From NCBI GenBank assembly GCA_017484065.1, contig JAFUTX010000009.1, forward strand, positions 23,952-87,951: a stretch of 64,000 nt of DNA, in the 5' to 3' direction. The notes below the pieces were generated by a model. The model did not search any database. It was not told where the DNA came from and worked only from the letters and a program-made list of their open reading frames with translations. The first letter of the stretch is position 1. The number at the start of each line of letters is the position of its first letter. The stretch is from Bacilli bacterium. GTDB lineage: Bacteria; Bacillota_I; Bacilli_A; RF39; UBA660. Shown piece after piece: positions 575-27,526 of this stretch. Position numbers and translations under genes: made by a program.

Positions 575-2044
575 CTAATTTTGTGGTTTCATTGTTGGGA
601 ATAATATAACATCTCTAATTGATGGTACATCATATGCAATCATCATTAATCTATCAATTCCAAAACCTAGTCCAGATATTGGAGGCATTCCTGTTTCCAT
701 AGCAAGAAGATAATCTTCATCTAAATCCATAGTTTCATCATCACCTTCAGCCTTAGCCTTTAATTGTTCTTCAAAAGTATTTCTTTGAATTTCTGGATTT
801 ACTAACTCAGAATAAGCATTACATATTTCACTACCACAAACTACTACTTGGAAACAATCTACTATATTACTATTATTATCGTTTCTTCTAGCTAATGGTT
901 TTAACATAGCTGGATAATTATACATAATAGTTGGTTCTATAATATTAGCTCTAATTAACTTTTTATATAAGAAGTCAGTTAATTGAGATACAGATTTATA
1001 TTCAATCATATCATTATAAGTAAATAATCCTTTATCTACTACTTTTTCCTTGTATTTATCAACATCTACTTCGTTTAAGAAATCAAATCCTAATATTTCA
1101 GTAAGCTTTTCAATGTAATTAATTCTATTATATTCACTTTTACCAAAATCTAGTTCATGTCCTTGATAATTTATAACAGTATTACCAGTTAAGAATTTAA
1201 TTGATTCTGATAAGAATTTTTGAAAAAATTTAATATTATCCTCAAAATCCCAGTAAGATGCATACCACTCTACTTGGGTAAATTCAGGACTATGTTCAGT
1301 ATCCATACCTTCATTTCTGAAACATTTAGATACTTCATATACACGATCAAATCCACCAGCAATACACTCTTTTAAATAACACTCTGGAGCAATTCTTAAA
1401 TTACAATCTAAGTCAAGGGCATTATAATGAGTAAAAAAAGGTTTTGCAGTTGCACCAGATACACTAGTTTGAACAATTGGAGTTTCAACTTCTAAGAAGC
1501 CATTTTCTGCTAAATAATTACGTAAGAATAAGTAATATTTACTTCTTCCTAAAAAAACTTTACGAGATTCTTCATTAGTTATTAAATCAACATAACGTTC
1601 ACGATACTTTAATTCAGTATCAGTTAAACCATGAAATTTTTCTGGAAGTGGTCTTAAAGCTTTACCTAAAAATTCAAATTCTTCTACTCTTAATGTCTTT
1701 TCACCAGTTTGAGTAGTAAATATTTCACCTTTAGCTCCAATAAAATCACCAGTATCTATTTGCTTTTTAAAGAAAGCATATTTTTCTTCACCTAGTAAAT
1801 CTATTTTCATTTCTAATTGAAAATTATCTTCAATATCTCTGATTTTAACAAATGATAATTTTCCCATTTTACGGGCAAAAACTATTCTACCTGCTACTTT
1901 AACATCAGTAGTACCATCACTTAAATTTTTAGCTTCACTTAAAGTATGTGTTCTTTCATATTTAGCTGGATACGGATTACATACATTGCTAATTTCTTGT
2001 AATTTTTCTCTTCTTACTATTTCTTGTTCACTTAAATTTCTCAT
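575..2044 (-). CDS. lysS: Lysyl-tRNA synthetase, class II
   Basis: 489 aa. N-terminal OB-fold region plus class II motifs (FRNEG, GLGxGxDR). Typical LysRS length and start. Confidence 0.95.
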   Translation of the reverse strand: MRNLSEQEIVRREKLQEISNVCNPYPAKYERTHTLSEAKNLSDGTTDVKVAGRIVFARKMGKLSFVKIRDIEDNFQLEMKIDLLGEEKYAFFKKQIDTGDFIGAKGEIFTTQTGEKTLRVEEFEFLGKALRPLPEKFHGLTDTELKYRERYVDLITNEESRKVFLGRSKYYLFLRNYLAENGFLEVETPIVQTSVSGATAKPFFTHYNALDLDCNLRIAPECYLKECIAGGFDRVYEVSKCFRNEGMDTEHSPEFTQVEWYASYWDFEDNIKFFQKFLSESIKFLTGNTVINYQGHELDFGKSEYNRINYIEKLTEILGFDFLNEVDVDKYKEKVVDKGLFTYNDMIEYKSVSQLTDFLYKKLIRANIIEPTIMYNYPAMLKPLARRNDNNSNIVDCFQVVVCGSEICNAYSELVNPEIQRNTFEEQLKAKAEGDDETMDLDEDYLLAMETGMPPISGLGFGIDRLMMIAYDVPSIRDVILFPTMKPQN

Positions 2045-2093
2045 TGTTATTTTCCTTTCTATGCAATAAAGTAAGGCCTTTATACATCTAAAA

Positions 2094-2121
2094 ATTATAC
2101 TGACTATTTCGAAAAAGTCAA
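2094..2121 (-). promoter_or_regulatory. Sigma-A-type promoter for lysS (TTGACT, 16 nt spacer, TATAAT)
   Basis: Reverse complement of 2094-2121 reads TTGACT tttcgaaatagtcag TATAAT, about 45 nt upstream of the lysS ATG. The AGGAAA RBS follows. Confidence 0.6.
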
Positions 2122-2155
2122 TACTTGTTACTGAAAAACTTAAAAAAAGAAAGAA

Positions 2156-2887
2156 CTATATTCTTCCTCTAATCTTTAGTACAAATACAAATCCTATTAA
2201 TAGAATAAATAATACTATACCTAATAATATAATAATTGTATTTTTTATACTACTATTACTCGAGTTATTGCTTTCTTCTCTATTAGTATTATCTTCTGTT
2301 ATAGTAGAACCACTCTTATCTTTATATTTCAAGTGAATACTACAATTATTTGGATTACTCTTATTAAAGTACCACATTAATGTATTATTTTCATTACGAG
2401 TTGCATTAGTTTCAACAACTTCATATTTATCAGCTAACTCTATTTTAATACTAACTGTATCTAAATTAGGAAATACTTCAAAACATTTAAATTTATTTAA
2501 TGTACTGATATCAACTGTATTATCACTACTATTCATTGTATAATCTATACTTCCAATACATGAAGTAGTTATAAATCCTCTAGATAGTTCACTTATATCT
2601 AAAAATCTATGAGATGATTTAGTAACACTTTTATCACTAGTTACATCAACATAATCATAATAGTGTATTCCCTCAACTTTCTCAGTTACTTCACTTGGAG
2701 GTAACTCATCATAATATAAAGGTATGTTGTTATTACGATATTGATATAAATCTTCGCCATCACCAACATAATATAAAATTGATTCATCAAAATCATCATC
2801 TATTTTTAAACGATATTCAGCAGTACAACCAGTCAATATAAATAAAATACTAACTAAACATATTAATCTTTTCATTATAATATTCAC
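2156..2887 (-). CDS. Lipoprotein with C-terminal TM anchor; last gene of the T4SS-like module
   Basis: 243 aa. Signal peptide with LTGC lipobox, Asn/Ser-rich body and a C-terminal hydrophobic helix followed by basic residues. Immediately adjoins the hydrolase gene, so probably co-transcribed. Confidence 0.5.
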   Translation of the reverse strand: MNIIMKRLICLVSILFILTGCTAEYRLKIDDDFDESILYYVGDGEDLYQYRNNNIPLYYDELPPSEVTEKVEGIHYYDYVDVTSDKSVTKSSHRFLDISELSRGFITTSCIGSIDYTMNSSDNTVDISTLNKFKCFEVFPNLDTVSIKIELADKYEVVETNATRNENNTLMWYFNKSNPNNCSIHLKYKDKSGSTITEDNTNREESNNSSNSSIKNTIIILLGIVLFILLIGFVFVLKIRGRI

Positions 2888-5803
2888 CTATTTTCCATAA
2901 TACTTTCTTAAATATTCATCCCAATCGACATTAGCTTCTACCAAATAAATCTTGGCATTGGTAAATCTCCCATAAGGAGGAAGTGATAAAGCACTTTTTT
3001 CTACTGGAGCATACACGTCAACTTGATTAGTTGCTAATCCTCCACCAGTATCACTAATATAGAAATATTTATTATTGGCATAAGTAGAAGAATCTGTTTC
3101 TATGTATATTACACTGCCATCTCCGACCCAACTACCTTTAGTAGCAACTTTACCTTTCTCAAGCAGTTCTCCATGCCGATCTAACTTACCACCTTCCATA
3201 GCTGAACCATCACCATTATAGTAAGTAATAATTCCCTGGTCAGTTAATAATCTAAAACCATCTTTATTCGGAGCACTTGCTTGTTCATACTTAAGTAATA
3301 AATCACCATAATTATTAACAATTACTGTTGTAATATCTTCTGCTATTTTATCTCTTTTATTAATGAAATTATTCATTGCAGTTCCATTATCATAAAATTC
3401 CGTTTCTAAATAAGTCATTGGTATACCCTTATCAATAAAGAACTTATAATCATCTAATCCACTAGGTTGATCTTGACACCCAATTTTACCATAACCAGTA
3501 TTTTTAGTTACAGCACTGATTATTTCGTCATCTACAGAAAGGCGAGAATATCCTGGCGAATAGCATGTTGTAGTACCAGTAGCAGTATGATTACCACTAG
3601 CATTAAAATGCAGCTCCATTACATATGAATAATCATTCCAATTAATACTTTGAAAACTAGCAGTATTATTGACTCTTTCATTTCTAAATGAAGCACAATC
3701 ACTACCATCATCACTTAATAATTCATTAGCAATATCAGCTTCTATTCCAGCATTTGCTAAAGCTTTTTGAATTGATTTTGCAAACTTTCTTGTTTCAACT
3801 TCTTCAGCATATCCACTAGAAGCTGTAACTCCACGACATTCACTTACTTGCGCTTGACCAGTAGATGTCGGTCCACCATCTTTTGTATGATTACAATAAT
3901 TATCTTTACCATTACAAGTTCCATTAGATGAATGCCCTGCTATTAACAATACTTTAGACATAGCTGCTACTGAATTTGAGCAATTTGAATTTGAACTATT
4001 TCTTCTAATTGTTTCAACATCTACATTACTAACATCTACACCAGTTACAGCCGAAAATTCTGTTTTATAAGCTTGAACATCTATCATATTATCTTCATTA
4101 GTATAATAACTATCCATATTTACTATTCCGAAAGTTCTTCCCTTTTCAATAGAAGTGGGATTTTTAGCAGCACCAACATGTTTAGATACTAACAAACCAT
4201 AAGTAAAATCTTGTTCTTCCGCTGTATAGATATCATCTCCATCAACACCTACTATTAACATAACGTGTCCGGTGCCTTGGGTTAGTACCAAATCTCCAGG
4301 CTTAGCGCTACAATTTGATGTACACCAATTATTAGAAAATTTAGTATACATTTCACTTGTCCCTTGACCAACATAGTTAAAACCACCATTTTTTAATGAC
4401 CAAGACACAAAACCTGAACAATCCAAAGCTGAATTTTGGCCAGCCCAATTTGGATTAGCACCTAATTGTTGATATTTTCCTCCCCAATCATATTCTAAAT
4501 TATATCCAGTAAGTTCTGGATAATAAACTGACAAAGCTAGTGCTGCAGCTACAACACCTTCTCGAGTTCCAATACCAGCACTTGCAACTTCATTAAATAG
4601 ATAAGTATTAAATTCATTTAAACTTGAACCTTTATTTTCTAAAGCTTTTGCAAAAGTAGTAGTTCCATTAGTAACAGTATAATCTTTAGAACTTATAGTT
4701 CCAATATAATTACTAGATGATCCCATGGCAATAGTTGCACCACTACCACTAGAACTAGCATTAATTGAATAATACTCAATATCATTACCATAATAATATG
4801 ATAATAATTCTTTATAATTCATACCTTTTTCCGTAGCAAGATAATAGGCTCCATATTGGCTCATACCTCGTCCATGTCCACCAGCCCCTACAGCTCTATA
4901 AGTAGCTGGTACATTATGTTCATTTACCCAACTAACTGGTATTTGTTGATCTTGTTGAGCCAAAGTATAAACAGCTGAATTAACTTCTTTTACATAAAAT
5001 GCATCGTATTCTGTACTAATTAAAGACCCATTACGCATTAATACTACACCACTAGTTTCACGAGCAGCTGATAAAAAAGCTTCATCATTAGTAGCACTAA
5101 ATACTTGAGTAGCAGTACTATTACCTATACTACAATCACTACCTACTCTATTTAAAACATAGGTACGAGCAGCAATAGCAAAAGCTTTTAAAGTATCCGG
5201 GGAATCACTAAATAATCCAACTTCACGTGATAAAACTCCTGCTACATAATCATCCATTTCATATCTAGAACCATCAACTGTAATTTCTTTACACTGAGCT
5301 TGATAATAGTTATAATTATTTGAACTACATCCATAATCATCAGCAAGTTCGTAACCTGACATAATTAATATCAACATAATTATAACTATTATTATAATAA
5401 TAACAGCCAATACCCATGGATTAGCAGCAATAAATTTTAATAATGCCGATTTTGCTTTTTCTTCTACAACACTTTTTGCTTTATCAACCGCCATGTTTTT
5501 TGCAGAATCTGCATTATCTTGTGCTGTTTCATTTACTTGTTCTTTTTGATCGTTTTCAGTATTGTTAATATTTTCATCTTCTACAACATCATCAACTTGT
5601 TCATTTACTATTTCTTCTTCATTTTGTAATTCTTCATTTACATTATTTCCATATTCTTCATTAGTATCAGCAACTACTTTTTGTTGAATATCTTTATTTT
5701 TTCTAAAAAATTTAGGTGAAGTATTACTAGCCACTTCATCACGACGATTTATATCTCTACGACGATTTATTCTATCAATCGCATTTTTATTGTTTTGTGC
5801 CAT
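2888..5803 (-). CDS. Conjugation-associated multidomain peptidoglycan hydrolase (SpoIID/LytB-like, NlpC/P60, Amidase_3-like, 3D domain)
   Basis: 971 aa. Acidic N-terminal region then one TM (AVIIIIIVIIMLILIM). SpoIID/LytB motif GHGRGMSQYGA. NlpC/P60 catalytic-Cys context DCSGFVSWSL with downstream His region. Amidase_3-like segment (LLIAGHS...E...ELHFNAS). C-terminal 3D-like Asp-rich segment. Sits where CwlT/TcpG/Orf14 sits in Gram-positive T4SS operons. Confidence 0.75.
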   Translation of the reverse strand: MAQNNKNAIDRINRRRDINRRDEVASNTSPKFFRKNKDIQQKVVADTNEEYGNNVNEELQNEEEIVNEQVDDVVEDENINNTENDQKEQVNETAQDNADSAKNMAVDKAKSVVEEKAKSALLKFIAANPWVLAVIIIIIVIIMLILIMSGYELADDYGCSSNNYNYYQAQCKEITVDGSRYEMDDYVAGVLSREVGLFSDSPDTLKAFAIAARTYVLNRVGSDCSIGNSTATQVFSATNDEAFLSAARETSGVVLMRNGSLISTEYDAFYVKEVNSAVYTLAQQDQQIPVSWVNEHNVPATYRAVGAGGHGRGMSQYGAYYLATEKGMNYKELLSYYYGNDIEYYSINASSSGSGATIAMGSSSNYIGTISSKDYTVTNGTTTFAKALENKGSSLNEFNTYLFNEVASAGIGTREGVVAAALALSVYYPELTGYNLEYDWGGKYQQLGANPNWAGQNSALDCSGFVSWSLKNGGFNYVGQGTSEMYTKFSNNWCTSNCSAKPGDLVLTQGTGHVMLIVGVDGDDIYTAEEQDFTYGLLVSKHVGAAKNPTSIEKGRTFGIVNMDSYYTNEDNMIDVQAYKTEFSAVTGVDVSNVDVETIRRNSSNSNCSNSVAAMSKVLLIAGHSSNGTCNGKDNYCNHTKDGGPTSTGQAQVSECRGVTASSGYAEEVETRKFAKSIQKALANAGIEADIANELLSDDGSDCASFRNERVNNTASFQSINWNDYSYVMELHFNASGNHTATGTTTCYSPGYSRLSVDDEIISAVTKNTGYGKIGCQDQPSGLDDYKFFIDKGIPMTYLETEFYDNGTAMNNFINKRDKIAEDITTVIVNNYGDLLLKYEQASAPNKDGFRLLTDQGIITYYNGDGSAMEGGKLDRHGELLEKGKVATKGSWVGDGSVIYIETDSSTYANNKYFYISDTGGGLATNQVDVYAPVEKSALSLPPYGRFTNAKIYLVEANVDWDEYLRKYYGK

Positions 5804-5828
5804 AATACTTCACCACCTTTATTGCTTT

Positions 5829-7613
5829 CTAGAAGCCTCCTCCTGCTCCAAATGAATCTAATTCTTCAGCAGTAACTACTACATTTATTCTCATTCTTCT
5901 TGAACCACAAATGAATAATCCTTCACCTTGGTTATAATATTTTATACTATTCTTTTCACTATCATTTAAATCTATTAATCTTGCTAAATCATCTACTGCT
6001 TGTTTTTTTAATCCCATTACTAAGTAATAAGATGCATTATCAAATATTGCTTTACCATGAACTAAAACATTAGGTGCAGCAAAGTCAGTAGGTTGTTGTG
6101 TAATGATTATAGTACCAGTATTATACTTTCTACTACGTCTTTGTATTTGAGCTAAGAATTCAGCTCCAAGTTCATTTGCACCAGTAAGAAGTACGTGAGC
6201 TTCATCTACCATCATTACTGTATTAATACTTTTATCTAAGCACATACCCCAAGCATATTTTAAAATATTAAAGAATAAAGCATTTTTTATATTAACATCA
6301 CTATTCATTAACTCTCTTATATTAAATACAACAAAGTTACTTTGAATATTTAGAGTTGTATGACCTGTAAAATAATATCTTAATTCATTTACTAATGGTC
6401 TTACTTTTAACTCTAATCTTTCCATTATATTTTTTTCTTGACTAGCCTCAGGCATAGCAAGTAAACGTCCCTTTATAGTAGCATATACGTCATCAAATGT
6501 AGGAAAGTCACTTGATTTAAATTGTGTAAAATCTGTATTAAAATCTATTTTAAATCTTTTATATGTATCTTGTACTACTTCACTGAACATTGTAAGTACA
6601 TCTTCTTCAATACTTGGAACATAATACTTCATAAATGCTTTTAATTGTTGCAATGTTCTAGTAAGAATTGTATATCCTAAACCTTGAGCAATTTCTTCTT
6701 CATCAGCATCTACTACGATTTCAAGAGGATTGATAAGTCCAAAGTTACCGCCTTTACCTAAATCGATAAAGTCTCCTCGCATAATACGTGCCATATCTTC
6801 AAGTTCTCCCTCAGGGTCTATACAAATAACACGACATCCATTACGGATATGATTTCTTAAAAGAAGCTTAGCTGCTGTAGATTTACCACTACCACTTGAA
6901 CCAAGTAATATCATATTAGCATTATTACGATTAAATTCCTTTTTTACTTGATACAAGAATTGATTAAATAAGATAACTCCACCAGAGAAATCAACACCAA
7001 ATAATGTAGCATTGCCTGGATCTTTAATACTATCAAACACAAATGGATACATAGCTGCTACAGTAATTGAAGGTATTGGTGTTCCTACTCTATTTTCAAT
7101 ATCTTGTTTAGGAAATATTGGTATTATAGATTTAAGAACTTTTTCTTGTTCAAACATTAATGGAACTCCACGCATTCCCATACCATCTAAATAATTACGT
7201 ACTTGAATTTTCTTTAAGTCTAATTCTTCTTTACTATCAGCAGTTATCATAACATGCATTTGAAAATCAAAAATTCTTGCTTGAGTAGCTGCTAATGTTT
7301 GAACAAATTTATCAATTGATTCGTAATCTTGGCGAATACGCTCTTGCATAGTTCTATCTTTTTCAGTTTGATATCTGTTTTTCAAATCAGCTATTTCTTT
7401 ATTTAGCATTTTTTGAACTGTTGAAAAATCTATAGGAATATGCTTAGCAACTACTTTAACACCATTTATGCTAGTAATATCTGAAAGATATCCTACTGGA
7501 ATACTTTTAGGATAACTAACTATAGATAAAATTGTACAATTTTTTCCACCTATAATAAATTCAGTTGGTTTAAAATCTAAACCTTTAGGTGCTACTTCAC
7601 TTTTGAAAGCCAT
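5829..7613 (-). CDS. VirB4/TraE/ConE-family conjugative ATPase, C-terminal approx 590 aa (ATPase domain)
   Basis: Walker A LLGSSGSGKST and Walker B-like MMVDEAH. N-terminus begins with the VirB4 SIVSYPKSIPVGYL-type segment. Overlaps the upstream ORF at a TAATG junction. Confidence 0.8.
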   Translation of the reverse strand: MAFKSEVAPKGLDFKPTEFIIGGKNCTILSIVSYPKSIPVGYLSDITSINGVKVVAKHIPIDFSTVQKMLNKEIADLKNRYQTEKDRTMQERIRQDYESIDKFVQTLAATQARIFDFQMHVMITADSKEELDLKKIQVRNYLDGMGMRGVPLMFEQEKVLKSIIPIFPKQDIENRVGTPIPSITVAAMYPFVFDSIKDPGNATLFGVDFSGGVILFNQFLYQVKKEFNRNNANMILLGSSGSGKSTAAKLLLRNHIRNGCRVICIDPEGELEDMARIMRGDFIDLGKGGNFGLINPLEIVVDADEEEIAQGLGYTILTRTLQQLKAFMKYYVPSIEEDVLTMFSEVVQDTYKRFKIDFNTDFTQFKSSDFPTFDDVYATIKGRLLAMPEASQEKNIMERLELKVRPLVNELRYYFTGHTTLNIQSNFVVFNIRELMNSDVNIKNALFFNILKYAWGMCLDKSINTVMMVDEAHVLLTGANELGAEFLAQIQRRSRKYNTGTIIITQQPTDFAAPNVLVHGKAIFDNASYYLVMGLKKQAVDDLARLIDLNDSEKNSIKYYNQGEGLFICGSRRMRINVVVTAEELDSFGAGGGF

Positions 7614-8209
7614 TATGCCATCACCGTCCCAAAATCAGTACTTACGCGATCATTAAAGAAATTATCCAATAACATTCTTAAATCATCATTGCTAACTTGA
7701 CTTGAATTAAGTCCACAATTAGCTAAAGAGGAAATCATATTATGCAAATTCTTTTGGATTAATTCAGGTCTTTTTTCTTTAAATAGAATAAAGTATTCAG
7801 TATCAACTACATTATAAGCTGCAGTCATAAACATATTTGCTTTATTTATATCTTGCATAATGATTTTACGAGATACTGCATCTTGAGTATTATTATATAA
7901 AACTTGTAATTGAGAAATGTACATATTTATATCTACAGGTCTATCAGCAATAATTAGCCAAAACTCATAATCTATCATATTATAAAATGTTTGTAATTGA
8001 TAAATTATATTATCTTGGGCACCTTGATCTAGTATAAATATATTTTTAGGTGCTACTTTAATACCAGTAACAAATTCACCATTTTCTAGTTCAATCATGC
8101 CATTAACAATTTGTTTTAGTGGTAGCCAATCTTCAGTATATGGGGAAGTTAAATTTTTATTTTTCTTCATGAATACTCCATCCTTTCCAATAATATCTTC
8201 TTCTTTCAA
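7613..8209 (-). CDS. VirB4-family ATPase N-terminal domain fragment (198 aa), separate ORF that appears to have split from the downstream ATPase ORF
   Basis: Ends ...DFGTVMA* and overlaps the ATG of the next ORF (MAFK...) by one base. Combined length of about 790 aa matches single-chain VirB4, Orf16, ConE and TcpF. Confidence 0.55.
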   Translation of the reverse strand: MKEEDIIGKDGVFMKKNKNLTSPYTEDWLPLKQIVNGMIELENGEFVTGIKVAPKNIFILDQGAQDNIIYQLQTFYNMIDYEFWLIIADRPVDINMYISQLQVLYNNTQDAVSRKIIMQDINKANMFMTAAYNVVDTEYFILFKEKRPELIQKNLHNMISSLANCGLNSSQVSNDDLRMLLDNFFNDRVSTDFGTVMA

Positions 8210-8471
8210 TAAAGAATTTAATTATATTAGTAATTAATTGCATTACGTTATGATAATGAGGTACAGGTAGTACCAAAAAACCAGATATTAATGCTGGTGA
8301 AAGTATAAGAATAGCATTCCATATACTACTATTAACTCCACTAATTAATAATAACATTACAAATGTTAAGACTATACCAGTTCCAAATATAGCTAAGTCT
8401 ATGCCAGTAAAGAAACCAAGTATTAGCATTTGTTTCTTTGAGTTAGCTGGTATTAAATAATCGTTATACAC
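8157..8471 (-). CDS. Small 2-3 TM membrane protein, VirB3/Orf17/ConD-like candidate
   Basis: 104 aa. GTG start 7 nt after an AGGAGG RBS. Two long hydrophobic helices. Located between the VirB6-like and VirB4-like genes. Confidence 0.45.
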   Translation of the reverse strand: MYNDYLIPANSKKQMLILGFFTGIDLAIFGTGIVLTFVMLLLISGVNSSIWNAILILSPALISGFLVLPVPHYHNVMQLITNIIKFFIERRRYYWKGWSIHEEK

Positions 8472-8489
8472 CTTTTTATTCCTCCTTTA

Positions 8490-24654: not shown

Positions 24655-25500
24655 TTATTTACTATTATCTTCTTTAAATTCTTCCTTTTTTTGGTAGTTA
24701 ATCTCTTCACTATTAATAGCTATACCAACGGTTAAAGCAATTGATAATAAATAGAACCAGATCATTAATACTACAATTGTAGCTAAACTTCCATAATAAA
24801 TAGAATATCTGGCGTAATGTGTTACATAGAATGAATAAATAGCTGAAATTAATACCCATGCAAATGTTGTAAATATTGCACCCTTATTCATTTTACTACT
24901 TGGAATAGGTTCATCCGGAGCCATTGTAAATATAGTTTTAATAACAAAAAACGTTACTAGCCAATAAACAGGACCTTTTAAAATATGTAATAGCACTTGG
25001 ATATGAGTAGTAATCTCTGCTCCACCATTAACATATTTTATTAATTCTAATATTTTATTACCAAAGACTGGCACTATTAACATAAATACCAGTAACATTA
25101 TAATTATAAATATCATAAACATAGATTTAATCTTACGATATATAAAGGGTTTTTGTTCTATTTTATATAAAGTATTAGAGGTAACTATTATACTAGATGC
25201 AGCTTTACTAGCTATATAATAAGCTATTATCATTGTAATAACTATACTCGTACTTACTCCGTTACCAAACCCTTTAGATATAAATAAGCTAGCAATATCT
25301 TCATTAAACATTTTTGTAATAAAATTATACACAAAATCCATAGATAAGTGAAATAAAGAAGCAATATAAGAAAGCAAAGATATAGTAGGAACAATAGATA
25401 ATATTAAGAAAAACGCAATTTGTCCTGGTAAAACTATCATCTCTGGTCTTTTTAAGATTTTATATAACTTTTTTATTACTTCTTTAATTTTTTTCTTCAT
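24655..25500 (-). CDS. YihY/BrkB-family membrane protein
   Basis: 281 aa, 6 TM helices. Start MKKKIKEVIKKLYKILKRPEMIVLPGQIAFFLILSIVP is typical of the YihY family. Confidence 0.7.
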   Translation of the reverse strand: MKKKIKEVIKKLYKILKRPEMIVLPGQIAFFLILSIVPTISLLSYIASLFHLSMDFVYNFITKMFNEDIASLFISKGFGNGVSTSIVITMIIAYYIASKAASSIIVTSNTLYKIEQKPFIYRKIKSMFMIFIIIMLLVFMLIVPVFGNKILELIKYVNGGAEITTHIQVLLHILKGPVYWLVTFFVIKTIFTMAPDEPIPSSKMNKGAIFTTFAWVLISAIYSFYVTHYARYSIYYGSLATIVVLMIWFYLLSIALTVGIAINSEEINYQKKEEFKEDNSK

Positions 25501-27526
25501 CTTTACTCTCTTTAGTTAATTTTTTTTGACTACGCATTTCTTCTACTGCTTCATTAATAGCATCTTCAATAGTTTTAGCATTATCATTTATCATACTATA
25601 ACCTAATGCTACACCATATTCGTAGTCTAATTTATTAAATTCTTTATTTAATTTATGTAAATAGTTAGTTACTTGTTTTTGACTATAACCAATCATATAT
25701 ACTAAGAATTCATTTCCATCAGTACGCATAATATCTGTATTATCTATTTGAGTTCTAATAAGAATGTTAGCAACTGATTTAATTATTTCATCACCTTGTT
25801 CATAGCCTAAGGTATCATTAATCTTTTGTAAATCATTAATATCTACTATTAAAGTAGCTTGAGGATATATATTATTATTATTCCAATTAGTTATGTTTTC
25901 ATTTAAATAATTTCTATTTTTTAAACTTGTTAATTGGTCAATGAATTTCATTTTATCTTCTTTTTTTATTTTTTTAGCTATTTTAATTTTTTTACTCTTA
26001 TAATACAAGTACATTAGAATTAAACCAACTATAATAATTACTATGATTAAATATTTTGCAATTGTTCCTAATACAGTTCCGCTTTCAACTGTTTGGTTAT
26101 GATTTTCAACGCCTTTATAAACTAAAGTTTTATGATCTAATGTTGAAATATATGCTCCAAATAATTTATTGAATGCATTATCATATTTAGTTTTAAACAC
26201 ATATTCTTTATTAGCATAATCACTAAATCTTAAACTATAATTACTTAGTATGTTAGTTGAATAATATTCATAAGCATTATTATCCATGATTATTATTTCA
26301 TGTTTTCTAGCTAATTTCTTTAAATCACTATTATCTTCATAAGTATTTAATTTTAAATAACCATATTGTTTTAAGAATGATTCTAGTACACTATCTTTTT
26401 GTACATATACTTCTACATCGGATAAAGCTTTTAAACTGTTAACAACCTTAAAATCACTAGTGTCTGCTACTACATCAAATTTAATAGGAATATTGGATTT
26501 AATAGCATTATATTCATTAGAAGTATTAAAATAATCAAAATATAAATCTATATCTTTATCTTCAATATCATTATTAAACTTCTTTAAACTACTATATTTA
26601 TTAAAATCTATTTCTACACCACTAAAATCACTAAAATATTTTAAATATACTGCCGTTATACCACCATAATTACCACTTATTAATACTTCATATGGACTAT
26701 TGTTAATAAAACCATATTGATAATCAATACTAACCATAGCATCTAGTTCAGTTTGGCTAATATTTAATTCGTTTAAGAACAACTTTAGTTCTTGTTCATC
26801 TATACTTTTTGATAGATTATTCTCTTTCCAAACATTCAAAAATTTTCTTAATACACTACTAAAGTAATCATCACTAGTATTAAGTACATAATGTCTTTCA
26901 ATATCACTAAAATGATATACTATAGAATAATTATTTTTTAATATTACATCCATGTATTCAATTAATGGAACAATAATATAATTAATATCTTTTTGTTTGC
27001 TAAAGGCGTCAAGTAAAGCATCTTTACTGTCATATTCTGCAAATACTAAATTAGAAACATTTGTTAAATAATCACTTACATATGATAAATTACTGTTTAA
27101 TAAACCAATCTTTTTACCATTAATATTTCTTTCTTCGTTAATTAGCTCATATTCCTTACTTACTAAAACATAATGGTCATTATAAAACTCGTATTGATTA
27201 TCATTGATTTCATTTACTACAGATAATCCAACACCATCACTAGACTCTCCGTTATTAAATGTTACAGGATTTAAATCTAGACTGTATTCTTTTTCAAAAT
27301 CTTCTATAAAAGTATAGAAAACACCAACACCTTCATTGCCAAATATGTTTTCGTTATTTAAAACATTTATATTTTGAACTTTAGCACTGTTGTCAGTTAT
27401 CCATCTTTTTTCTGCTGATGTTATTTTATTTTCATCACTTAATACATTATAAATAATTATACCAACAATTATAATAAATACCATAGATATTATTGATATT
27501 ATTTTTGTTTTTTTATTATTTTTCAT
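25484..27526 (-). CDS. Membrane sensor with extracytoplasmic domain and C-terminal degenerate GGDEF domain
   Basis: N-terminal TM, about 450-aa extracellular region, second TM, then a GGDEF fold (DQLTSLKNRNYL ... RTDGNEF) in which the GG(D/E)EF motif reads DGNEF. Confidence 0.65.
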   Translation of the reverse strand: MKNNKKTKIISIISMVFIIIVGIIIYNVLSDENKITSAEKRWITDNSAKVQNINVLNNENIFGNEGVGVFYTFIEDFEKEYSLDLNPVTFNNGESSDGVGLSVVNEINDNQYEFYNDHYVLVSKEYELINEERNINGKKIGLLNSNLSYVSDYLTNVSNLVFAEYDSKDALLDAFSKQKDINYIIVPLIEYMDVILKNNYSIVYHFSDIERHYVLNTSDDYFSSVLRKFLNVWKENNLSKSIDEQELKLFLNELNISQTELDAMVSIDYQYGFINNSPYEVLISGNYGGITAVYLKYFSDFSGVEIDFNKYSSLKKFNNDIEDKDIDLYFDYFNTSNEYNAIKSNIPIKFDVVADTSDFKVVNSLKALSDVEVYVQKDSVLESFLKQYGYLKLNTYEDNSDLKKLARKHEIIIMDNNAYEYYSTNILSNYSLRFSDYANKEYVFKTKYDNAFNKLFGAYISTLDHKTLVYKGVENHNQTVESGTVLGTIAKYLIIVIIIVGLILMYLYYKSKKIKIAKKIKKEDKMKFIDQLTSLKNRNYLNENITNWNNNNIYPQATLIVDINDLQKINDTLGYEQGDEIIKSVANILIRTQIDNTDIMRTDGNEFLVYMIGYSQKQVTNYLHKLNKEFNKLDYEYGVALGYSMINDNAKTIEDAINEAVEEMRSQKKLTKESKDEEKN

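Follow-up and report, generated by a model that had tools for sequence, protein, structure and literature searches.

What kind of cell-wall hydrolase is encoded directly behind a VirB4-type ATPase gene in an uncultured Bacilli bacterium, and what would it do there? The gene lies in a stretch of 64,000 nucleotides (hereafter the window) from contig JAFUTX010000009.1 of assembly GCA_017484065.1 (positions 23,952 to 87,951), and its product of 971 amino acids (aa) had been described, in a reading made from the sequence alone (the sequence-only reading), as a fusion of SpoIID/LytB-type, NlpC/P60, amidase-like and 3D domains behind a single transmembrane (TM) anchor and in a type IV secretion system (T4SS) context. 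We found that the SpoIID, NlpC/P60 and Amidase_3 domains all score above their Pfam gathering thresholds (GA) and retain conserved catalytic residues, and that the gene occupies a slot which holds wall hydrolases in many related clusters. The protein is probably the local wall-breaching component of a Gram-positive T4SS-like apparatus.

The open reading frame (ORF) begins 25 bp past the VirB4 stop codon, with a Shine-Dalgarno-like GGTGGTGA located 8 nt upstream of the ATG, and its other end abuts a lipoprotein gene; the T4SS context claimed for it is upheld. A scan for promoters and terminators over 1900-11600 returned nothing above shuffled expectation. The identical 971-aa protein is present in NCBI and ENA, carrying the NCBI label 'MAG: N-acetylmuramoyl-L-alanine amidase [Bacilli bacterium]' (MAG, metagenome-assembled genome), and was seen on approximately ten contigs of up to 106 kb. 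A full-length AlphaFold2 model (121-sequence alignment; mean predicted local distance difference test score, pLDDT, of 72) contains three confident blocks, at aa 165-346, ~375-600 and 615-836 (mostly pLDDT >85). The N-terminal region, which varies among homologues, is mostly disordered (pLDDT <50 over aa 14-101), and a long helix (aa 94-127) leads into the membrane segment. One TM helix was identified, as the sequence-only reading had stated, and the topology is type II, with the N-terminus inside, the C-terminus outside and the catalytic domains extracytoplasmic. Judged by residue conservation, all four domains look catalytically competent.

The first of these domains is of the SpoIID/LytB type. 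Pfam SpoIID (PF08486) matched aa 181-256 at 34.3 bits (38.9 bits for the isolated segment; GA 23), while TIGR02669 (SpoIID_LytB) gave 70.7 bits over two stretches, under its cutoff of 83.3. The block was modelled at pLDDT >90 over aa 170-345, and its top Foldseek matches in the PDB were the SpoIID structures of C. difficile and Bacillus anthracis, 5i1t (E 2.7e-7) and 4rwr (E 2e-6), the full range for matches to SpoIID structures being E 3e-7 to 4e-6. Alignments from phmmer also link the domain to 5i1t and 4rwr and place E194 ('LSREV') on the Glu of 'AGEM' and 'ASEM', respectively. E194 is invariant in 50 homologues, as are H310-G-x-G-x-S within the motif GHGRGMSQYGA (aa 309-319) and the Cys pair C171/C224. 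The catalytic Glu is E101 in C. difficile SpoIID (PMC6221140) and E88 in Bacillus subtilis SpoIID (PMC6635528), and this alignment identifies E194 as the predicted catalytic Glu of the hydrolase.

Could the protein then be a sporulation enzyme, a fused SpoIID and SpoIIP-like hydrolase of engulfment or cortex remodelling that adjoins T4SS genes by coincidence? The host is a spore-former, judging from its genes for CotE (upstream) and for SpoIIIAH, GerE, a GerM-like protein and YutH (downstream); the union of an amidase with SpoIID mirrors the SpoIIP-then-SpoIID logic of engulfment (PMC6221140); and the window cluster yielded no VirD4. Set against this, TIGR02870, the spore_II_D equivalog, scored 33.2 bits with a cutoff of 234.75, and the domain is not an orthologue of sporulation SpoIID proper. 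Moreover, the gene is tightly packed between VirB4 and a conserved lipoprotein, orthologous SpoIID+NlpC/P60 genes fill the same slot at more than 20 loci, including those of MAGs labelled Mollicutes, Tenericutes and Mycoplasma sp. CAG:956, and the amidase part is nearest to T4SS_pilin+Amidase_3 proteins and to a hydrolase encoded after VirB4. A sporulation role is thus very unlikely. The same phylogenetic spread and the same lack of orthology undercut the earlier suggestion that a SpoIID-type domain here fits a spore-forming host.

The second domain is an NlpC/P60 cysteine peptidase. Pfam NLPC_P60 (PF00877) matched aa 437-519 at 30.7 bits (33.5 bits for the isolated segment; GA 23), and CHAP scored 23-25.6 bits over the region (23.3 in the full protein), under its GA of 26. 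Fifty homologues all retain D461-C462-S463, within LDCSGF (aa 460-465), and H513 (GHVML); C462 and H513 line up with the catalytic pair of CwlO, its Cys in DCSSF and its His in GHV. Both motifs that the sequence-only reading had quoted, this one and the GHGRGMSQYGA of the SpoIID domain, are present.

The third domain is an N-acetylmuramoyl-L-alanine amidase of the Amidase_3 family (PF01520; aa 619-828, 41.2 bits, GA 27). Foldseek matched it to CwlV 1jwq, CD27L 3qay and CwlD 7rag (E ~5e-6 to 1e-4) and further to AmiC2 5emi, 9jzo, Ami1 and LytH, and a single-sequence search of this part against the PDB came near noise. The subfamily alignment was trimmed, its untrimmed profile being dominated by the NlpC/P60 domains of some members. 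The subfamily shows no variation at H624 (AGHS), E667/E670 (YAEEVETR), H732 (ELHFN) or E802 (YLETEF) and almost none at E800; a profile alignment to the endolysin 9jzo pairs the HFN motifs of the two proteins and matches E800 with the Glu of 'IEVCF'. E800 is accordingly the putative catalytic Glu, and E667 and E670 are the candidates for the zinc-ligand Glu. Between the first zinc His and the Glu helix lies an insertion (aa ~627-656; ~3836-3925, minus strand) with pLDDT <50 at aa 633-652, flanked by two subfamily-invariant Cys (GHSxxxxC ... EC-R-G) that may form a disulfide or a metal site. Nearest to the amidase part, at 38-45% identity, are Amidase_3 proteins of 355-385 aa and post-VirB4 hydrolases of the P0133 type. 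Several of the 355-385-aa relatives consist of an N-terminal T4SS_pilin-like TM domain fused to Amidase_3; one of these 355-385-aa proteins, P0125 (L088 10001-11071), has no T4SS genes nearby and adjoins restriction-modification and defence-like genes.

The C-terminal tail, aa 838-971, was poorly modelled at full length (pLDDT 26-47) because no homologue in the 121-sequence alignment reached it, and it was re-examined by running phmmer with the tail alone on 1.84 billion representatives and by building a second structure model. The search returned 47 clusters (50% identity), the best being 50-60% identical to the hydrolase tail; this family had been missed by a homologue search with aa 575-971, which returned amidase relatives only, and PDB sequences gave no match to the tail in either sequence or profile searches. 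The modelled fold is a double-psi beta-barrel nearest to MltA and YuiC, with expansins and other such barrels lower, and Foldseek agrees. D918 (DTGGG) and D929 (VDVY) are invariant in the tail family and stand 11 residues apart, the same spacing as D151/D162 of YuiC and D297/D308 of MltA, in which D162/D308 is the catalytic carboxylate (PMC4499186); in addition, the conserved T860-x-Y862 corresponds to T91/Y93 of YuiC. Pfam 3D scored 22.1 and 23.8 bits on isolated tail fragments (GA 23.8) and was the only recurrent match among ten homologous tail segments, mostly sub-threshold and once above GA (26.7 bits). Taken together, these results indicate, on the strength of the model, that the fourth domain is a divergent 3D/MltA-YuiC-type barrel. 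It differs from MltA and YuiC in belonging to a divergent subfamily, in lacking the inserted domain of MltA and in occurring only as a module of multi-domain hydrolases. The 3D-like assignment proposed earlier therefore holds for the fold and for the D918/D929 pair, with the family score and the first Asp, discussed below, on the other side; HMM scans, structure prediction and catalytic-residue alignment brought up nothing that overturned any of the four domain assignments.

In every case the tail module was found inside a multi-domain wall hydrolase, its partners being NlpC/P60, Phage_lysozyme2, M23, M15_4, C39_2, glucosaminidase, GDSL, CHAP and SpoIID, and proteins with SpoIID+3D-like (P0161) and NlpC/P60+3D-like (P0160, P0165) combinations exist. 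The closest tail relatives, P0138 and P0143, are on short contigs with unannotated neighbours, and the tail subfamily (P0138-P0184) conserves the motif NVSWEEY..KY in a C-terminal helix. When the tail was compared by BLASTP with the C-termini of P0127 and P0133, no significant alignment resulted and the resemblance did not go beyond motifs. A phage or phage-tail-like lysin left by a prophage remnant would also suit the occurrence of tail relatives in large multi-domain proteins, alongside Phage_lysozyme2, M23 and the like, and SpoIID-like domains have been noted in a few polyvalent proteins from phages and conjugative elements (PMC5512222). Neither the hydrolase nor the lipoprotein nor the VirB6-like protein had a PHROG match at E <= 1e-3, tblastn of the hydrolase core against 50,697 phage records found nothing, and around the gene lie T4SS and housekeeping genes but none for capsid, tail or integrase. 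A prophage origin was set aside on the absence of PHROG and phage-collection matches, and we consider it extremely improbable.

The order VirB6-like protein, PrgI-like protein, TraC-like VirB4 N-terminal domain, VirB4 ATPase, hydrolase and TM/lipoprotein (Table 1) is common to more than 20 related loci (L001, L002, L008-L012, L015, L017-L021, L025-L028, L034, L035, L037, L051 and L090), from gut MAGs labelled Bacilli, Mollicutes, Tenericutes, Erysipelotrichaceae and Mycoplasma sp. CAG:956. Walker A (GSSGSGKS) and Walker B (VMMVDE) of the VirB4 ATPase are intact. Its best NCBIfam match is the VirB4 family of Mycoplasma integrative and conjugative elements (ICEs), and the closest annotated relatives of the cluster are components of Mycoplasma ICEs. 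The stop codon of the VirB4 N-domain gene overlaps the ATPase start (TAATG), and the VirB3/VirB4 split into three genes is kept in all related loci and is therefore not a frameshift artefact.

In the relatives, the cluster stands between one to three pilin-like genes on its upstream side and, on its downstream side, a gene for the coupling protein VirD4; the flanks of these relatives showed neither relaxase nor integrase. Upstream stand Obg and DUF6512, or two genes of unknown function (F14 and F11) with no Pfam match; downstream stand rhodanese, VTT and RmuC. Comparing the same genome pairs, VirB4 identity runs alongside that of Obg/RmuC (87-89% versus 83-89%, and 66-68% versus 64-68%). Because chromosomal synteny is conserved, VirB4 identity tracks that of Obg/RmuC and neither relaxase nor integrase was seen, the T4SS-like cluster looks vertically inherited and not like an ICE.

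The position behind VirB4 is filled by different hydrolases in different clusters. Its commonest form is SpoIID+NlpC/P60 (540-620 aa), found in hundreds of proteins. These hydrolases (P0003-P0120) are homologous to the present protein over aa 1-573 at 31-41% identity and share its TM anchor and invariant residues, and the members examined for context sit right after VirB4. Unlike the four-domain hydrolase they end at NlpC/P60; only P0002 (L001) and P0019 add Amidase_3, giving SpoIID+NlpC/P60+Amidase_3, and none adds the 3D tail. Other occupants are SpoIID+M23 (L019), M23+CHAP (L028), M23+phage lysozyme with a separate NlpC-like protein (L034), and Amidase_3+NlpC/P60 with a C-terminus bearing a possible DTGG...IDI motif, accompanied by a separate glucosaminidase protein (L090, P0133). 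At least eight types of catalytic module are thus shuffled through the slot, with SpoIID as the default glycan cutter. These data do not bear out the earlier view that a SpoIID-type domain is unusual in a T4SS context, SpoIID+NlpC/P60 being the standard form here; the unusual feature is that Amidase_3 and a 3D domain have been added to that core. No second protein with the four domains together was found. The hydrolase is also the fastest-evolving gene of the cluster, with 28-55% identity in genome pairs where VirB4 retains 65-89%, and the four-domain form probably arose by fusion of a SpoIID+NlpC/P60 core with amidase and 3D modules from the slots of sister clusters. The combination of domains is new, but T4SS-associated wall hydrolases with several domains are a known kind of enzyme.

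Wall hydrolases associated with the T4SSs of Gram-positive bacteria are essential for conjugation, and few have been characterised. They include CwlT of ICEBs1 (B. subtilis), PrgK of pCF10, TraG of pIP501, TcpG of pCW3 and Orf14 of Tn916, which are named in PMC9324163 and PMC4027160. Local breaching of the wall for channel assembly has been proposed for the first four. The sequence-only reading had taken one glycosidase plus one peptidase as the norm for such enzymes, a rule that PrgK, with its three domains, already breaks. To our knowledge, no characterised T4SS hydrolase uses SpoIID, Amidase_3 or 3D domains. The present protein resembles this group in its N-terminal anchor, in its T4SS operon position beside VirB4, in the union of a glycan-cleaving domain with NlpC/P60 or CHAP, and in the presumed role of opening the wall locally. 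It differs in that CwlT-type enzymes have two domains (three in PrgK) and cleave glycan by lysozyme, SLT or glucosaminidase-type activity, whereas the hydrolase here combines SpoIID and 3D/MltA transglycosylases with Amidase_3 in four catalytic domains, and in that its cluster showed no relaxase or coupling protein in the regions examined. A tblastn search of the hydrolase core against a plasmid collection gave no match. In the literature covering SpoIID with VirB4 or T4SSs, T4SSs of RF39, and VirB4 or VirD4 of gut Mollicutes, we found no description of this hydrolase family or of the cluster, the remark on SpoIID-like domains in polyvalent proteins (PMC5512222) being the sole related text.

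A second comparison is with SpoIID/SpoIIP (DMP), with which the hydrolase shares the SpoIID fold, the catalytic Glu, the pairing of an amidase with a transglycosylase for denuded glycan, and a membrane tether; it departs from that system in being one fused chain, in using a CwlV-type Amidase_3 of a T4SS-associated subfamily, and in its T4SS context. SpoIID-type lytic transglycosylases act on glycan strands already stripped of stem peptides by an amidase (PMC6635528, PMC6221140), and C. difficile SpoIID is inactive on intact peptidoglycan without prior amidase treatment (PMC6221140). These properties suggest a model for the fused protein. The TM helix would tether four catalytic domains beside the VirB4/VirB6 channel. 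The Amidase_3 domain would cut bonds between N-acetylmuramic acid and L-Ala (MurNAc-L-Ala), stripping stem peptides, and the SpoIID domain would then cut the denuded glycan; because denuded glycan is the obligate substrate of SpoIID-type enzymes, SpoIID could act on the amidase product, which would be supplied in cis. NlpC/P60 would cut within stem peptides and so break cross-links, and the C-terminal MltA/YuiC-type (3D) domain would serve as a second lytic transglycosylase, of a different fold and with mechanistically distinct glycan cleavage. Their combined action would open a local hole through the thick wall for channel assembly, and a part in secretion or DNA transfer would follow from it. 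The hydrolase could accordingly be viewed as a single-chain model of the SpoIIP-then-SpoIID reaction sequence. That SpoIID is the default glycan cutter of these clusters raises the question of where the denuded glycan comes from, to which an amidase in cis is a testable answer.

Several observations weigh against this proposal. At the level of the enzyme, the hydrolase activities are predicted, and the order in which the domains act is one that we infer. For the third catalytic residue of NlpC/P60 there are several candidates, E529/E530 (in a family-conserved 'AE(S)') and the invariant D521. In the full protein, Pfam 3D (PF06725; aa 896-939) reached 18.8 bits with a GA of 23.8, and of the three conserved aspartates of this fold (MltA D261, D297 and D308; YuiC D129, D151 and D162; PMC4499186) two are present, the first being replaced by K889 (VATK), a position that varies across the tail family. 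At the level of the locus, tblastn detected no VirD4 homologue in the 64-kb window, a search of the window for the pilin-like proteins of the relatives found none, and the ORFs and flanks that were examined showed no relaxase or integrase domain. The apparatus may therefore lack parts or serve a purpose other than conjugation.

These gaps bear on a further explanation, in which the hydrolase is an exapted general autolysin or wall-turnover enzyme and the T4SS-like cluster of this genome a remnant, either out of function or put to a new use. The window locus lacks VirD4, the pilin-like genes and the rhodanese neighbour that relatives have, and the hydrolase, as the fastest-evolving gene, has gained two domains. 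Yet the VirB6-like, PrgI-like, TraC-N, VirB4 (Walker A and B intact) and lipoprotein genes are all full-length and tightly coupled, VirB4 shares 78-81% identity with the VirB4 proteins of relatives, a degree of conservation that speaks for ongoing selection on the machine, and VirD4 could be encoded elsewhere in the genome. We judge this explanation unlikely. A somewhat better, still doubtful prospect is that the cluster is a non-mobile, vertically inherited, core chromosomal T4SS-like apparatus, domesticated and repurposed in this spore-forming member, where VirD4 and the pilin-like genes would have been lost and the hydrolase would have gained an amidase and a second lytic transglycosylase. 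If so, its task would be one other than conjugation, for example taking up or releasing DNA, exchange between cells or remodelling the wall under developmental control, and the four-domain enzyme would be the adapted wall-opening tool of a domesticated T4SS in an uncultured, low-GC clade of gut Bacilli. A possible domesticated chromosomal T4SS in a very abundant uncultured gut lineage would be the more interesting lead. As a wall-breaching enzyme of a T4SS-like apparatus, the reading we prefer, the hydrolase would in addition offer four muralytic activities, potentially separable from one another, for use against uncultured gut Firmicutes.

Table 1. Features of the hydrolase, its domains and the surrounding cluster, in window coordinates.
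Feature	Coordinates	Strand	Basis or remark
Four-domain hydrolase ORF	2888..5803	minus	971 aa, membrane-anchored; ATG start
N-terminal region, aa 1-126	5426..5803	minus	low-complexity, charged, predicted cytoplasmic
Single TM helix, aa 129-151 (PWVLAVIIIIIVIIMLILIMSGY)	5351..5419	minus	sequence and model
SpoIID/LytB-type lytic transglycosylase domain, aa 165-346	4766..5311	minus	Pfam, NCBIfam, phmmer, Foldseek
NlpC/P60 (CHAP-like) cysteine peptidase domain, aa 395-575, with N-terminal helical part	4079..4621	minus	Pfam, alignment
Amidase_3 (N-acetylmuramoyl-L-alanine amidase) domain, aa 612-838	3290..3970	minus	Pfam, Foldseek, alignment
Predicted 3D/MltA-YuiC-type double-psi beta-barrel lytic transglycosylase domain, aa 850-971	2891..3256	minus	
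VirB6-like polytopic membrane protein, 811 aa, weak N-terminal T4SS_pilin-like segment	8490..10925	minus	MMCAP2_0566 family; TrbL_4 in homologue
PrgI/VirB3-like small membrane protein, 104 aa	8157..8471	minus	
TraC-like VirB4 N-terminal domain, separate gene (~185 aa)	7613..8170	minus	
VirB4-type ATPase, 594 aa	5829..7613	minus	NF045975 346 bits; P-loop_TraG
Lipoprotein, 239 aa, signal MKRLICLVSILFILTGC, C-terminal TM helix	2156..2875	minus	downstream of hydrolase

Some features of the locus stand apart from these questions. NF045975, the Mycoplasma ICE VirB4 family (894 positions), spans the PrgI-like, TraC-like and ATPase segments as one protein. The lipoprotein belongs to no Pfam or PHROG family and has a weak EssA-like C-terminal match; its gene is present in nearly all related clusters and is sometimes duplicated. 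No rhodanese neighbour occurs at the locus or elsewhere in the window, unlike in related loci with enough flanking sequence. The cluster is flanked by lysS directly past the lipoprotein and, on the other side, by genes for a phosphoesterase, UDPGP, CotE and a FIST protein. Further out or outside the window are SpoIIIAH, GerE, a GerM-like protein, YutH and a penicillin-binding protein. The CotE match scored 154 bits in a host of ~27% GC, with features at 13587-14123, 14614-15864 and 25484-27526, all on the minus strand, and a FIST/NosP-like sensor and a GGDEF protein are encoded nearby.

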